From: a virus
Taxonomy: Duplodnaviria > Heunggongvirae > Uroviricota > Caudoviricetes
Virus record (IMG/VR): IMGVR_UViG_2695420538_000013
DNA length: 19,994 nucleotides
Direction: 5' to 3' (one strand)
Each line of letters begins with the position of its first letter. Position 1 is the stretch's first letter. The position numbers and the translations under genes were made by a program. Under the pieces are notes generated by a model, which did not search any database, was not told where the DNA came from, and saw nothing but the letters and a program-made list of their open reading frames with translations. Shown here one piece after another: positions 9,371 through 15,211 of the stretch.

Positions 9371-10068
9371 AAAACATCGCCGCACAGATGGTTAACTTTG
9401 ACTGTGAGCAGATGCGCCGGATCGCCAACAACATGCCGGAACAGTACGACGAAAAGCCACAGGTACAGCAGGTAGCGCAGATCATCAACGGTGTGTTCAG
9501 CCAGTTACTGGCAACTTTCCCGGCGAGCCTGGCTAACCGTGACCAGAATGAACTGAACGAAATCCGCCGCCAGTGGGTTCTGGCTTTCCGGGAAAACGGG
9601 ATCACCACAATGGAACAGGTTAACGCTGGAATGCGCGTAGCCCGTCGGCAGAATCGACCATTCCTGCCATCACCCGGGCAGTTTGTCGCCTGGTGCCGGG
9701 AAGAAGCATCTGTTAACGCCGGGCTGCCAAACGTCAGCGAGCTGGTTGATATGGTTTACGAGTATTGCCGGAAGCGTGGCCTGTATCCGGATGCAGAGTC
9801 TTATCCGTGGAAATCGAACGCGCATTACTGGTTGGTTACCAACTTGTACCAGAACATGCGGGCCAATGCGCTGACTGACGCGGAATTACGGCGCAAGGCT
9901 GCCGATGAACTGACCTGTATGACAGCGCGAATTAACCGTGGTGAGACGATACCTGAACCAGTAAAACAACTTCCTGTTATGGGCGGTAGACCTCTAAATC
10001 GTGCACAGGCTCTGGCGAAGATCGCAGAAATTAAAGCTAAGTTCGGACTGAAAGGAGCAAGTGTATGA
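9367..10068 (+). CDS. P: Replication protein P (DnaB helicase loader)
   Basis: 233 aa MKNIAAQMVNFDCEQMRRIANNMPEQYDEKPQVQQVAQIINGVFSQLL..., recognised as near-identical to lambda P. Confidence 0.95.
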   Translation: MKNIAAQMVNFDCEQMRRIANNMPEQYDEKPQVQQVAQIINGVFSQLLATFPASLANRDQNELNEIRRQWVLAFRENGITTMEQVNAGMRVARRQNRPFLPSPGQFVAWCREEASVNAGLPNVSELVDMVYEYCRKRGLYPDAESYPWKSNAHYWLVTNLYQNMRANALTDAELRRKAADELTCMTARINRGETIPEPVKQLPVMGGRPLNRAQALAKIAEIKAKFGLKGASV

Positions 10069-10367
10069 CGGGCAAAGAGGCAATTATTCATTACCTGGGG
10101 ACGCATAAGAGCTTCTGTGCACAGGACGTTGCCGCGGTAACAGGCGCAACCGTAACCAGCATAAATCAGGCTGCGGCTAAAATGGCGCGGGCAGGAATCC
10201 TGGTCGTTGATGGTAAGGTCTGGCGAACGGTGTATTACCGGTTCGCTACCAGAGAAGAACGGGAAGGAAAGGTGAGCACGAATCTGATTTTTAAGGAGTG
10301 TCGCCAGAGTGCCGCGATGAAACGGGTATTGAGGGTATATAAAAGAACATCAATGGGTACACAATGA
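10065..10367 (+). CDS. ren: Ren (Rex-exclusion relief) protein
   Basis: 100 aa MTGKEAIIHYLGTHKSFCAQDVAAVTGATVTSINQAAAKMARAG..., recognised as lambda Ren-like. Start overlaps the P stop. Confidence 0.9.
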   Translation: MTGKEAIIHYLGTHKSFCAQDVAAVTGATVTSINQAAAKMARAGILVVDGKVWRTVYYRFATREEREGKVSTNLIFKECRQSAAMKRVLRVYKRTSMGTQ

Positions 10368-10434
10368 TGAAACAGGTGAGTTGAGTTCAAACTGTAGTAC
10401 AATTCTCTCCAGTTTGAACAGGAAAGAATATGCT

Positions 10435-10767
10435 ATGAACCCTTATATTTATCTTGGTGGTGCAATACTTGCAGAGGTCATTGGTACAACCTTAATGAAG
10501 TTTTCAGAAGGTTTTACACGGTTATGGCCATCTGTTGGTACAATTATTTGTTATTGTGCATCATTCTGGTTATTAGCTCAGACGCTGGCTTATATTCCTA
10601 CAGGGATTGCTTATGCTATCTGGTCAGGAGTCGGTATTGTCCTGATTAGCTTACTGTCATGGGGACTTTTCGACCAACGGCTGGACCTGCCAGCTATTAT
10701 AGGCATGATGTTGATTTGTGCCGGTGTGTTGGTTATTAATTTATTGTCACGAAGCACACCACATTAA
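10435..10767 (+). CDS. emrE: Small multidrug resistance (SMR) efflux transporter EmrE
   Basis: 110 aa from MNPYIYLGGAILAEVIGTTLMKFSEGFTRLWPSVG..., four TM helices with the conserved Glu14. The track ORF begins at an upstream TTG. Confidence 0.95.
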   Translation: MNPYIYLGGAILAEVIGTTLMKFSEGFTRLWPSVGTIICYCASFWLLAQTLAYIPTGIAYAIWSGVGIVLISLLSWGLFDQRLDLPAIIGMMLICAGVLVINLLSRSTPH

Positions 10768-10796
10768 AATAATTTGTTTCTAAACGACTAAAATAT

Positions 10797-10830
10797 GGAG
10801 GCTCTTATATTTATATGAGCCTCGTTTTAT
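10797..10830 (+). terminator. Rho-independent terminator downstream of emrE
   Basis: GGAGGCTC (10797-10804), 12-nt loop, GAGCCTC (10817-10823), then GTTTTATGCTTTTT. Confidence 0.6.
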
Positions 10831-11021
10831 GCTTTTTGTTAATGTCTTTATTTTTTATGTATTCTTTTGTGCTTTCAAGATTATGGCGTAAGAAAATTGC
10901 AATACGATTATTGTTGTATATTCAAGATAATGTGACCTTAATTGTCTTTTTAAATAAAAATTAAACAAAAATTATATCCCACCACTAAGGTTTATAAAAG
11001 CATACGTTAGCAGGTGTCACC

Positions 11022-12548
11022 ATGAAAAAAGCCATAGCATATATGCGATTTTCATCACCAGGTCAGATGTCTGGTGACTCATTAAACCGACAGAGAAGAC
11101 TTATTGCTGAATGGTTAAAGGTAAATAGTGATTATTATCTTGATACCATAACATATGAAGATTTAGGATTAAGTGCATTCAAAGGAAAGCATGCACAATC
11201 AGGAGCTTTTTCGGAATTTTTAGATGCTATAGAGCATGGTTATATATTGCCAGGAACTACATTGTTAGTTGAAAGTCTGGACAGACTTTCAAGAGAAAAA
11301 GTCGGTGAAGCGATTGAACGTCTGAAATTGATTTTGAATCACGGTATTGATGTTATAACTCTTTGCGACAATACAGTCTATAATATTGACTCTTTGAATG
11401 AGCCATATTCATTAATAAAAGCCATACTTATAGCACAAAGGGCAAATGAAGAAAGCGAGATAAAGTCAAGTCGGGTTAAATTATCATGGAAGAAAAAACG
11501 GCAGGATGCACTGGAATCAGGTACGATTATGACGGCGTCTTGTCCGAGATGGCTCTCCTTAGATGACAAAAGAACGGCTTTTGTTCCAGACCCCGACAGG
11601 GTGAAAACTATTGAGCTAATTTTTAAACTCAGGATGGAAAGGCGCTCATTGAATGCAATAGCCAAGTATTTAAATGATCATGCTGTAAAGAATTTCTCAG
11701 GAAAAGAAAGTGCATGGGGACCTTCTGTAATTGAAAAATTATTAGCGAATAAAGCTCTGATAGGTATATGCGTACCTTCATATCGTGCAAGAGGGAAAGG
11801 GATAAGTGAAATCGCTGGCTATTATCCCAGAGTCATATCAGATGATTTGTTTTACGCTGTACAGGAAATTCGGTTGGCACCTTTTGGTATTAGCAATAGT
11901 AGCAAGAATCCTATGCTAATAAATCTACTTCGAACAGTTATGAAGTGTGAGGCTTGTGGTAATACCATGATTGTTCATGCGGTATCTGGAAGTTTGCATG
12001 GCTATTATGTTTGTCCGATGAGAAGATTACATCGATGTGACAGGCCATCAATAAAAAGAGATTTGGTTGATTATAATATCATTAATGAATTGCTTTTTAA
12101 TTGTAGCAAAATTCAACCAGTTGAAAACAAGAAAGATGCTAATGAAACTTTAGAGTTAAAAATTATTGAGCTTCAGATGAAAATTAATAATTTAATCGTT
12201 GCATTGTCTGTCGCGCCTGAAGTTACCGCTATAGCAGAGAAAATAAGACTATTAGATAAGGAATTACGAAGGGCTTCGGTATCATTGAAAACTTTGAAGA
12301 GTAAAGGTGTAAATTCATTCAGTGATTTTTATACTATTGACTTAACCAGTAAAAATGGACGAGAGTTATGCCGTACACTTGCCTATAAAACATTCGAAAA
12401 AATCATAATTAATACGGATAATAAAACCTGTGATATTTATTTTATGAATGGCATTGTTTTTAAACACTATCCTTTAATGAAAGTAATATCCGCCCAGCAG
12501 GCGATAAGTGCTCTCAAATATATGGTTGATGGTGAGATTTATTTCTAA
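11022..12548 (+). CDS. ybcK: Large serine recombinase (resolvase/invertase N-terminal catalytic domain, recombinase domain, zinc-ribbon), YbcK-like
   Basis: 508 aa. N-terminal AIAYMRFSSPGQ...SLNRQR (catalytic Ser region), central recombinase domain, Cys cluster CEACGN...YYVCP...HRCD, and C-terminal coiled-coil-like region. Confidence 0.9.
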   Translation: MKKAIAYMRFSSPGQMSGDSLNRQRRLIAEWLKVNSDYYLDTITYEDLGLSAFKGKHAQSGAFSEFLDAIEHGYILPGTTLLVESLDRLSREKVGEAIERLKLILNHGIDVITLCDNTVYNIDSLNEPYSLIKAILIAQRANEESEIKSSRVKLSWKKKRQDALESGTIMTASCPRWLSLDDKRTAFVPDPDRVKTIELIFKLRMERRSLNAIAKYLNDHAVKNFSGKESAWGPSVIEKLLANKALIGICVPSYRARGKGISEIAGYYPRVISDDLFYAVQEIRLAPFGISNSSKNPMLINLLRTVMKCEACGNTMIVHAVSGSLHGYYVCPMRRLHRCDRPSIKRDLVDYNIINELLFNCSKIQPVENKKDANETLELKIIELQMKINNLIVALSVAPEVTAIAEKIRLLDKELRRASVSLKTLKSKGVNSFSDFYTIDLTSKNGRELCRTLAYKTFEKIIINTDNKTCDIYFMNGIVFKHYPLMKVISAQQAISALKYMVDGEIYF

Positions 12549-13012
12549 ATAATGATCTCGGATTTTAAGTTATGCTATGGTGATAAAGTGCAAGACAGAA
12601 TTAATTATCTTTGACGAAACTTAATGGGTAATTACTTTGTTTGCTCCCACAAGCGAGTTTTGTACGGCTGTATTGGGGTAGTAAATGAGCTATACAATCT
12701 TAATCATTTGTCAGGTGAGAACTCTTGGTCGCAGATTCAAATACTGAAAATACGTGACAAATTATTATGAGCAAAATGGTGTATGTCACGTATTTTGAAT
12801 GATAGGTTAAAAAATAACACCGACTTTCGTAGGTATTACTAATAATAAAGCAGAGTTTTTAGATAGTATCAATGTGCTTTGTGTATATTGTGGCAAATAA
12901 TTGGGTTGGGGGTACAATTGTGATTGCTTTTGCATAAAAATTGCGCCTTTATGCATAATGAGATAAAGGAATATCAAATAAAATAACGATAGGTCATAAC
13001 AAAGAGGTTTTT

Positions 13013-13564
13013 ATGAAAACACTTATCGTTTCAACTGTATTGGCATTCATAACATTTTCTGCGCAGGCTGCAGCATTTCAGGTCACTAGTAATGAAATAA
13101 AAACAGGAGAGCAACTTACAACGTCTCATGTCTTTTCTGGATTTGGGTGTGAAGGTGGTAATACATCGCCCTCATTAACCTGGTCTGGTGTTCCTGAAGG
13201 TACCAAAAGCTTTGCCGTAACTGTATATGATCCAGATGCACCTACAGGCAGTGGTTGGTGGCATTGGACTGTTGTTAATATTCCAGCAACAATAACATAT
13301 TTGCCCGTTGATGCAGGGAGACGTGATGGAACAAAACTGCCGACTGGTGCTGTTCAAGGCCGAAATGATTTTGGCTATGCTGGGTTTGGTGGCGCGTGTC
13401 CTCCTAAAGGAGATAAACCACATCATTACCAGTTTAAAGTATGGGCTCTAAAAACTGAAAAGATTCCTGTAGATTCTAACTCCAGCGGAGCGTTAGTTGG
13501 TTATATGCTTAATGCTAATAAAATCGCAACCGCTGAGATAACACCAGTTTATGAGATAAAGTAG
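13013..13564 (+). CDS. ybcL: Secreted PEBP/YbhB-YbcL family (UPF0098) protein
   Basis: 183 aa with signal peptide MKTLIVSTVLAFITFSAQAAA. PEBP motifs DPDAPTGSGWWHW and HHYQFKVWAL. AGAGG Shine-Dalgarno. Confidence 0.85.
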   Translation: MKTLIVSTVLAFITFSAQAAAFQVTSNEIKTGEQLTTSHVFSGFGCEGGNTSPSLTWSGVPEGTKSFAVTVYDPDAPTGSGWWHWTVVNIPATITYLPVDAGRRDGTKLPTGAVQGRNDFGYAGFGGACPPKGDKPHHYQFKVWALKTEKIPVDSNSSGALVGYMLNANKIATAEITPVYEIK

Positions 13565-13573
13565 GGTGAGAGT

Positions 13574-14371
13574 ATGCTGGCAAGAGGTAAGACTAACTTA
13601 AAGATCGAAGAAATACGGATGCATAAACATCATGAGATTCATAGGGTTAAGCCTCTTATGCCAGCTTTGTGTCGTATCCGTCAGGGAAAGAAAGTTATCA
13701 ATTGGGAGACGCATACTTTAACTGTTGATAATAATCAAATAATATTATTTCCTTGTGGTTATGAATTTTATATTGAGAATTATCCTGAAGCAGGGCTTTA
13801 TCTTGCAGAAATGCTTTACTTACCCATTGATTTAATTGAGAGTTTCCAAAAACTTTATACGGTAACTGATCAAATACGTAACAAAACAAGTTTCTTTTTA
13901 CCTCAGAATCCTGAGTTAATATATTGTTGGGAGCAACTAAAAACATCTGTTTCCCGAGGCTTCTCAACTAAAATTCAGGAGCACTTAGCAATGGGCGTTC
14001 TACTTTCGTTAGGAGTGAATCATGTTAATCATTTACTTTTATCATATAGTAAACAATCATTGATAAGTCGTTGTTATAACCTGCTGCTATCCGAACCCGG
14101 CACAAAATGGACAGCAAACAAGGTTGCTCGATATCTCTACATTTCTGTTTCTACATTACATCGCCGTCTAGCAAGCGAGGGGGTAAGTTTCCAAAGTATA
14201 CTGGACGATGTGAGGTTAAATAATGCGTTGTCTGCTATACAAACGACGGTAAAACCTATAAGCGAGATTGCCAGAGAAAATGGTTATAAGTGTCCTTCTC
14301 GTTTTACTGAAAGATTTCATAATCGTTTTAATATAACACCAAGAGAGATAAGAAAAGCTTCCAGAGAGTAA
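13574..14371 (+). CDS. ybcM: AraC/XylS-family transcriptional regulator YbcM-like
   Basis: 265 aa. C-terminal double HTH ([21 protein letters not shown]...[30 protein letters not shown]). Confidence 0.85.
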
Positions 14372-14487
14372 AAGTGTTTTAAGAAGGAGCAATTCTATCG
14401 ATTTTGATTTTGGGAAATCAACACGGCATAATTATGTCACCGGAGCCTGAACAACTCCGGTGACTTCTGCGCTAAACGGGGACGTTT

Positions 14488-14589
14488 ATGCGCACATACA
14501 ATCCAAACTCTCTTCTCCCTTCACAGATGCAGAAATGCACCTGCAATTCTTTGCATCTAGCGTTTGACCTCTGCGGAGGTGAAGCGTGA
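14488..14589 (+). CDS. ylcH: Small protein YlcH-like (33 aa)
   Basis: Hand-translated [36 protein letters not shown], too short for the ORF track. Its stop overlaps the GTG start of ybcN, and it matches my recollection of DLP12 ylcH. Confidence 0.45.
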
Positions 14590-15041
14590 ACCTCTCACAA
14601 GACGGCATCAAATTACATCGCGGCAACTTCACCGCTATCGGTCGGCAGATCCAGCCTTATCTGGAGGAGGGCAAATGCTTTCGCATGGTGCTTAAACCGT
14701 GGCGTGAGAAACGCAGTCTTTCCCAGAATGCACTCAGCCACATGTGGTACAGCGAAATCAGTGAATACCTCATCAGCAGGGGTAAAACGTTCGCCACTCC
14801 AGCTTGGGTAAAAGATGCTCTCAAACACACATATCTCGGTTATGAAACCAAAGACCTGGTTGATGTCGTAACCGGTGATATCACCACTATCCAGTCGTTA
14901 CGCCATACCTCCGATCTTGATACCGGAGAGATGTATGTCTTCCTGTGTAAGGTTGAAGCCTGGGCGGTGAATATTGGCTGCCACCTGACTATTCCGCAGA
15001 GCTGCGAGTTCCAGCTGCTCCGCGACAAGCAGGAGGCGTAA
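14586..15041 (+). CDS. ybcN: YbcN-family protein (DLP12-type nin-region protein, reported DNA base-flipping activity)
   Basis: 151 aa with GTG start and GGAGGTG Shine-Dalgarno. Sequence [30 protein letters not shown]... as recalled for YbcN. Confidence 0.8.
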
Positions 15042-15211
15042 TGGCTACACCGCTTATTCGTGTCATGAACGGACACATCTACAGAGTATCAAATCGTCGT
15101 AAGCGTAAGCCTGAGCTGAAGCCATCCGAAATACCAACACTGCTCGGATATACCGCTAGCCTGGTTGATAAAAAATGGTTGCGACTGGCAGCAAGGAGGA
15201 ATCATGGCTGA
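15041..15211 (+). CDS. ninE: NinE-like protein (56 aa)
   Basis: Hand-translated [56 protein letters not shown]. Start overlaps the ybcN stop (TAATG) and its end overlaps the ybcO start. Basic small protein in the nin position. Confidence 0.6.
   Translation: MATPLIRVMNGHIYRVSNRRKRKPELKPSEIPTLLGYTASLVDKKWLRLAARRNHG

Follow-up and report, generated by a model that had tools for sequence, protein, structure and literature searches.

A perfect inverted repeat between ybcK and ybcL of a DLP12-like prophage: a possible terminator-like hairpin, distinct from the probable operator of YbcM

Between ybcK and ybcL of a DLP12-like lambdoid prophage of E. coli lies a perfect 13-bp inverted repeat with a 24-bp spacer, first noticed in a sequence-only reading of this DNA and confirmed here at positions 12747-12759 and 12784-12796 of the window (the whole stretch of DNA analysed, 19,994 bp). 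We tentatively read this dyad, on the strength of folding predictions and its position between two gene units, as a bidirectional, factor-independent terminator-like hairpin or insulator that may close the ybcK unit and shield the ybcLM promoter, an interpretation that we regard as possible rather than probable. The competing explanations are weighed below together with the evidence that bears on each of them.

Results

An inverted repeat longer than expected by chance

The genes in this part of the window are arranged in the order ren (10065-10367), emrE, ylcJ, ybcK (11022-12548), ybcL (13013-13564), ybcM (13574-14371), ylcH and ybcN. ybcK encodes a large serine recombinase with Resolvase, Recombinase and Zn-ribbon domains, ybcL a PEBP-family protein and ybcM an AraC-type regulator. 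The spacer between the end of the ybcK stop codon (12548) and the ybcL ATG (13013) is 464 bp long and shows 100% identity to strain 2452 and 98.9% identity to K-12. Elsewhere in the window, the minus strand carries an ALIL pseudoknot at 1734-1850 (Rfam RF01497, 120 bits), which is the signal for frameshifting in an IS3-family element.

The left arm of the dyad, AAAATACGTGACA (12747-12759), consists of an A4 tract (12747-12750) followed by a 9-nt stem half (12751-12759). After an asymmetric spacer of 24 nt (12760-12783), the right arm, TGTCACGTATTTT (12784-12796), provides the second 9-nt stem half (12784-12792) and a T4 tract (12793-12796), which runs on as TTTTGAAT to 12800. The two arms are complementary at 13/13 positions, and the symmetry extends to 15/17 matches over 12743-12800. 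Since A4 and T4 tracts flank a 9-bp stem, which includes 4 G-C pairs, the "13-bp dyad" amounts to an A-tract plus stem on one side and a stem plus U-tract on the other. It begins 199 bp past the ybcK stop codon, ends 27 bp ahead of the ancestral ybcL-upstream homology block GACTTTCGT, and corresponds to about 570,627-570,676 of K-12 (U00096.3).

When all 19,994 bp were scanned for inverted repeats with a spacer of ≤60 nt, the dyad proved to be the longest perfect repeat of the window, and only one other repeat reached 11 nt. In composition-matched, block-wise first-order Markov simulations, perfect repeats of 13 nt or more were obtained for 3 of 400 simulated windows (0.75%) and, when only the 464-bp spacer was simulated, for 18 of 20,000 sequences (0.09%). 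The dyad therefore exceeds chance for one window, and the earlier judgement that it is improbable by chance was right; for an E. coli-sized genome, about one or two perfect 13-mers are expected by chance. The recurrence of a short GTGAC-type motif, which the same reading had pointed out, is at chance level: ATGTCAC was found 4 times against 2.7 expected, with 55 of 200 shuffles doing as well, and TACGTGACA, allowing at most one mismatch, was found 6 times (both arms included) against 3.3 expected.

Searches for an established class of element at the dyad returned little. Apart from the ALIL pseudoknot, no Rfam covariance model reached its gathering score in the window, and none reached E ≤ 1 within 12480-13020. 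A REP/ERIC/MITE-type repeat was considered and rejected, because each of the 675 genomes with the dyad has it at exactly one place, and no match elsewhere reaches E ≤ 10. RefSeq K-12 records carry no annotation over the dyad, and we found no mention of it in the literature. A 48-aa ORF that ends inside the dyad (12624-12770), the only sizeable one of the segment around it, belongs to no protein family among 1.84 billion representatives, and a 56-aa minus-strand ORF whose end is 11 nt away from the dyad lacks conservation in E. albertii.

A predicted hairpin between two gene units

The predicted RNA hairpin has its core at 12751-12792, with a folding energy of -13.2 kcal/mol on the plus strand and -10.2 kcal/mol on the minus strand; including the tails, it reaches -18.7 kcal/mol (z about -3.4), and it persists when folded in a 193-nt context. 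This energy is comparable to that of the emrE terminator, which is located 2 kb upstream in the same window, inside the annotated small ORF ylcJ (GAGGCTC...GAGCCTC at 10798-10826, followed by GTTTTATGCTTTTTG; folded over 10796-10828, -13.6 kcal/mol). A U-rich tract is present 3′ of the stem on either strand (TTTTGAAT on the plus strand and TTTTCAGT on the minus strand, each with 5 T in 8). The position is also that expected of a terminator, past the ybcK stop codon and upstream of the ybcLM promoter elements, and no other plus-strand hairpin candidate was detected between ybcK and the ybcL promoter. Several features argue against a terminator: the stem is A/U-rich, the U-tract has only four residues and is able to pair with the A-tract, and the loop of 24 nt is reduced to 7 nt only by a weak inner helix with three G-U pairs, formed in the plus-strand RNA by 12763-12768 and 12776-12781. 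A consensus terminator scan, which admits loops of 3-8 nt, did not call the dyad hairpin. As the consensus promoter and terminator scans did no better here, in A+T-rich DNA, than on shuffled sequence, and missed the emrE terminator as well, we give them little weight either way.

Related loci carry terminators in similar places. In E. albertii, which has no ybcK here, the shared GAC(T/A)TTCGT...ybcL promoter block is immediately preceded by the emrE terminator GCCCGCATTTTTATGTGGGCAATTTTTT, in a position equivalent to that of the dyad. Canonical terminators are likewise found 100-400 bp downstream of the recombinase gene in phage Perceval (AGCCCGCATAAGTGCGGGCTGCTTTTT) and in the Atlantibacter ybcK-family locus (AAAAAAGCCCGC-N4-GCGGGCTTTTTT).

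Published transcription data have a limited bearing on the hairpin. One E. coli 3′-end data set lists no RNA 3′ end at the dyad but records termination by Rho close to where ybcK starts (568940), and a further terminator, in the untranslated region that precedes ybcK, has been reported. Start-site tables list no plus-strand start between 568538 and 570094 (U00096.2). The locus is bound by H-NS, in an interval (570312-570725) that contains the dyad, and is derepressed in hns mutants. Given silencing by H-NS and the early stop that Rho imposes on ybcK transcription, the missing 3′ end is uninformative; little transcription may ever reach the dyad. The predicted stable hairpin and its A4/T4 flanks are compatible with the earlier suggestion of a structured RNA element.

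The dyad lies in an orphan segment of one prophage lineage

In the sequence collections searched, only a single young lineage of E. coli prophages has the dyad. It occurs there as the full site, always within the same context, and was recovered from 675 of 5,426 E. coli genomes, from 40 IMG/VR contigs and from 20 metagenome contigs. Copies in 42 + 20 related loci are identical, spacer included (62/62); flanking diversity is only ~2%, so that zero SNPs in 50 bp would be expected in about 1 of 3 cases. As all copies are identical, the comparative data are unable to separate the readings further. Absence of conservation in relatives had been named earlier among the findings that would speak against a functional site, and the absence of the dyad outside one lineage weakens the readings that make it a protein site.

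The IMG/VR profile scan with a YbcK alignment returned only copies of at least 97% identity, and more distant relatives were fetched singly. Among 79 IMG/VR loci with 97-100% identical ybcK, 28 carry the dyad together with ybcLM, ~42 an alpha/beta-hydrolase cassette as in phage Perceval, 6 a 280-bp filler and 1 an insertion sequence, while 2 were too short for classing; about 50 of the 79 are without the dyad, and none of the other cassette types has it after ybcK. All cargo variants share ybcK and ~40-70 bp past its stop codon (to ~12589-12618), and they rejoin the window at 14402-14404. The interval from ~12590/12618 to 14402 is thus a variable cargo slot, occupied by ybcLM, an opposite-strand alpha/beta hydrolase, the 280-bp filler or insertion sequences. 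Every cargo variant keeps two elements at its right border, an inverted repeat TTGATT-N6-AATCAA (14404-14421) and a G+C-rich hairpin GTCACCGGAG-N9-CTCCGGTGAC (14436-14464); located just upstream of ylcH/ybcN, they may represent a tR2-like terminator or nin-region regulatory signals.

The dyad is carried by an orphan segment of ~200 bp (12619-12822), which is absent from the related arrangements: it is missing from hydrolase-type phages with ybcK as well as from the emrE-ybcL loci of E. albertii and S. flexneri, and no homologue was found in E. coli genomes outside its context, in phage records or in plasmids. In E. albertii and in the S. flexneri prophage variant (L047 and L057), emrE directly abuts ybcL. 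Compared with these loci, the window contains an insert of ~2.05 kb from 10774 to ~12822, and since the ylcJ-ybcK unit is missing there, ybcK behaves as a ~2.05-kb insertion, for which no recognisable terminal repeats or duplication were detected. Given that ybcK variants without the dyad and ybcLM loci without the dyad both exist, the ~200-bp segment goes with neither ybcK nor ybcLM; on its left is the ybcK unit and on its right the ancestral promoter region of ybcLM. An apparent left module junction at 12713 in one locus (L024) was rejected, as it is an IS5 inserted at TTAG, 34 bp left of the dyad. At 12710-12713, most strains have TTAG and the window has TCAG (a C/T polymorphism at 12712). 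Another locus (L035) has an insertion sequence within ybcL.

This distribution is pertinent to a neutral origin, in which a dyad without function would have arisen by chance, or as a quasi-palindrome of mechanical origin, and would have hitch-hiked with a prophage segment that is young and almost clonal; an imperfect repeat could have been made perfect by template switching in A+T-rich foreign DNA. The identity of 62/62 copies is compatible with such an origin, the low flanking diversity making the lack of SNPs unsurprising, and so are the confinement of the dyad to one orphan segment without homologue, its absence from every related arrangement, the one or two perfect 13-mers expected per genome, and the absence of any signal at the dyad in the ChIP, start-site and 3′-end data sets consulted. 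The simulated frequencies (just 0.75% of windows and 0.09% of spacers) speak against it, as does the resemblance to a terminator of the A4-stem/stem-T4 layout and of the position at a unit boundary. On balance, we doubt a neutral origin, while granting it an appreciable chance.

YbcM probably binds a conserved direct repeat near the ybcL promoter

ybcL and ybcM are adjacent in E. albertii, the S. flexneri prophage variant, Phytobacter, an Enterobacteriaceae isolate, Lelliottia, Limnobaculum, Plesiomonas, Brenneria, Yersinia ruckeri and Rahnella. YbcM identity across these loci ranges from 39% to 82%, and most of the loci are chromosomal and outside prophages. The occurrence of chromosomal ybcL-ybcM pairs in many Enterobacterales indicates that these DLP12 "prophage genes" are a captured host operon, that is, an old Enterobacterales gene pair taken up by lambdoid phages.

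Eleven ybcLM loci from different genera have a direct repeat, TTTGCAYGAT-N11-TGCAYGAT, upstream of ybcL, and the dyad is present in none of them (0/11). In the window, the two copies of the direct repeat are TTTTGCATAAAA (12928-12939) and TTATGCATAATG (12949-12960), with a 21-bp period, followed by a -10 element TAAAAT (12979-12984). A Cappable-seq plus-strand start at 570094 (U00096.2; window ~12991) lies 7 nt past the -10 element and 22 nt before the ybcL ATG. Both the -10 element and this start are conserved as well.

In a ChIP-exo study of YbcM, 12 sites were mapped (PMC8464067, Gao et al. 2021), one of them a peak at ybcL (570015-570048, S/N 357; PMC8464067). Positions in U00096.2 were converted to the window via the ybcL ATG, with an accuracy of ±1. 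We take the ChIP-exo coordinates to be those of U00096.2, because a YedW site just upstream of lpp and the csrB site fit that version only. This places the peak at ~12912-12945 of the window, downstream of the dyad by some 115 bp, where it overlaps the direct repeat at 12928-12960, which itself is located just upstream of the -35 position. A 21-bp direct repeat abutting the -35 element is the classic AraC/XylS arrangement. The true operator of YbcM is therefore probably this direct repeat, arranged in a class II-like manner, and YbcM binding can now be placed on a phylogenetically conserved element. With the YbcM operator accounted for in this way, the dyad is not the operator of the adjacent regulator, and the earlier proposal that assigned it to the neighbouring AraC protein is contradicted both by the offset of the ChIP-exo peak and by the ybcLM loci that have the repeat and no dyad.

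The dyad could instead serve as an operator for a dimeric or tetrameric protein other than YbcM, such as a host or prophage regulator, or as a nucleation site of the H-NS tract, which we consider unlikely. Its perfect 13-bp arms are longer than an RNA stem strictly needs, and it is included in the H-NS-bound interval. The half-sites, however, are 37 bp apart centre to centre, or 3.5 helical turns, and would therefore be on opposite faces of the helix. Moreover, the arms do not recur in the window, the cI/cro immunity region shows no similarity to them, YbcM binds elsewhere, and the dyad is single-copy in E. coli, so that there would be no regulon.

Another explanation, to which we assign a low probability, is that the functional element is an embedded minus-strand promoter that would drive an antisense RNA across the 3′ end of ybcK, the symmetry being incidental. 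The putative promoter comprises a -35 element GTGACA (12789-12784), a 17-bp spacer and a -10 element AATAAT (12766-12761); with a 10/12 match and optimal spacing, it is among the three best in 10000-15200. A terminator-like hairpin on the minus strand ~250 nt downstream (12504-12490) would provide a possible end for such an RNA over the ybcK stop codon. H-NS-silenced A+T-rich DNA is known to contain many promoters of this kind (PMC3923964, PMC8894471). Against this explanation, promoter-like matches are not enriched (17 against 15.4 expected in shuffles), and the perfect symmetry is left unexplained.

Little to connect the dyad with YbcK

The least probable explanation, and a very improbable one, is that the dyad is a cognate attP-like site of YbcK, with the outer arms as zinc-ribbon motifs and crossover at 12771/12772. 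YbcK has all the domains of a large serine recombinase (3/3) and the conserved R9/S11 catalytic motif. The dyad is exactly 50 bp long, is found close to ybcK (199 bp) within the ~2.05-kb insert that contains this gene relative to E. albertii and S. flexneri, and has its arms at positions 13-25 from the centre. The outer motifs of the phiC31, Bxb1 and A118 attP sites are at these same positions. However, the central dinucleotide (G12771-C12772) is palindromic and gives no polarity, and the inner halves, AATTATTATGAG and TACACCATTTTG, match at only 3/12 positions, whereas the outer arms are symmetric at 13/13. Phages with a 97%-identical ybcK lack the dyad, and the homologues checked, from Atlantibacter, Y. 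enterocolitica and a lambdoid contig (56-61% identity), have neither a comparable dyad nor an arm-like 10-mer. Half-sites alone, as in attL or attR, were not found in the 5,426 E. coli genomes, IMG/VR or metagenomes; every match to the site or to its left half is a complete site in the same context, and thus no attL/attR-like product exists anywhere searched. The proposal of a serine-recombinase crossover site, also made in the sequence-only reading, accordingly gains no support.

Two of these homologues sit in phages of other types. That of Atlantibacter (L137, 5001-7432) is at the end of a Mu/P2-like prophage and adjoins the tmRNA gene ssrA, and that of Y. enterocolitica (L139, 5001-6770) has as neighbours, within a P2-like prophage, an autotransporter gene and a partial tRNA-Leu(UAA) 3′ half. 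Both are 56-59% identical to YbcK, and the YbcK family may include working integrases.

Discussion

The hairpin of a weak terminator or insulator remains our tentative interpretation of the dyad. Under this model, RNA polymerase arriving from ybcK, or in antisense from the ybcL side, would pause on the U-tract, the dyad hairpin would form at the paused polymerase, and the transcript would be released. The ybcK unit would then constitute a moron, an extra piece of cargo in the phage genome, closed by the dyad hairpin, and the autoregulated ybcLM promoter region would be shielded from read-through. Phage morons are, according to reports by Hendrix and colleagues, as a rule delimited by a promoter and a factor-independent terminator. 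If the dyad is a terminator, it marks a further boundary of a moron in a defective prophage that has been studied well, and helps to annotate the ybcK and ybcLM units of K-12.

The reading of the dyad as a YbcK site, improbable as it is, would have consequences of a different kind. YbcK is a conserved, intact serine recombinase, for which the 50-mer would be the first candidate DNA substrate. DLP12-type prophages would then carry a second, serine-type recombination module beside the variable-cargo slot, and recombination there could underlie the exchange of cargo (ybcLM, alpha/beta hydrolase or short filler).

Three known systems can be compared with the dyad. With the attP sites of large serine integrases (phiC31, Bxb1, A118/LI), it shares a length of ~50 bp, symmetric outer motifs and an adjoining recombinase gene; it differs from them in its palindromic centre, in its asymmetric recombinase-domain halves and in not being linked to the gene across lineages. 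AraC-family operators take the form of direct repeats adjoining the -35 element, or of distal looping sites such as araO2. The dyad is likewise located upstream of an operon with an autoregulating AraC-type gene, but its arms are unlike the YbcM direct repeat at 12928-12960. Compared with the usual terminators, its loop is long (24 nt versus 3-8), only 4/9 stem pairs are G-C, and the U-run has four residues. With the bidirectional terminators that bound morons, the dyad nevertheless has in common a stem-loop between an A-tract and a U-tract, placed at the 3′ end of an inserted unit and before the next promoter.
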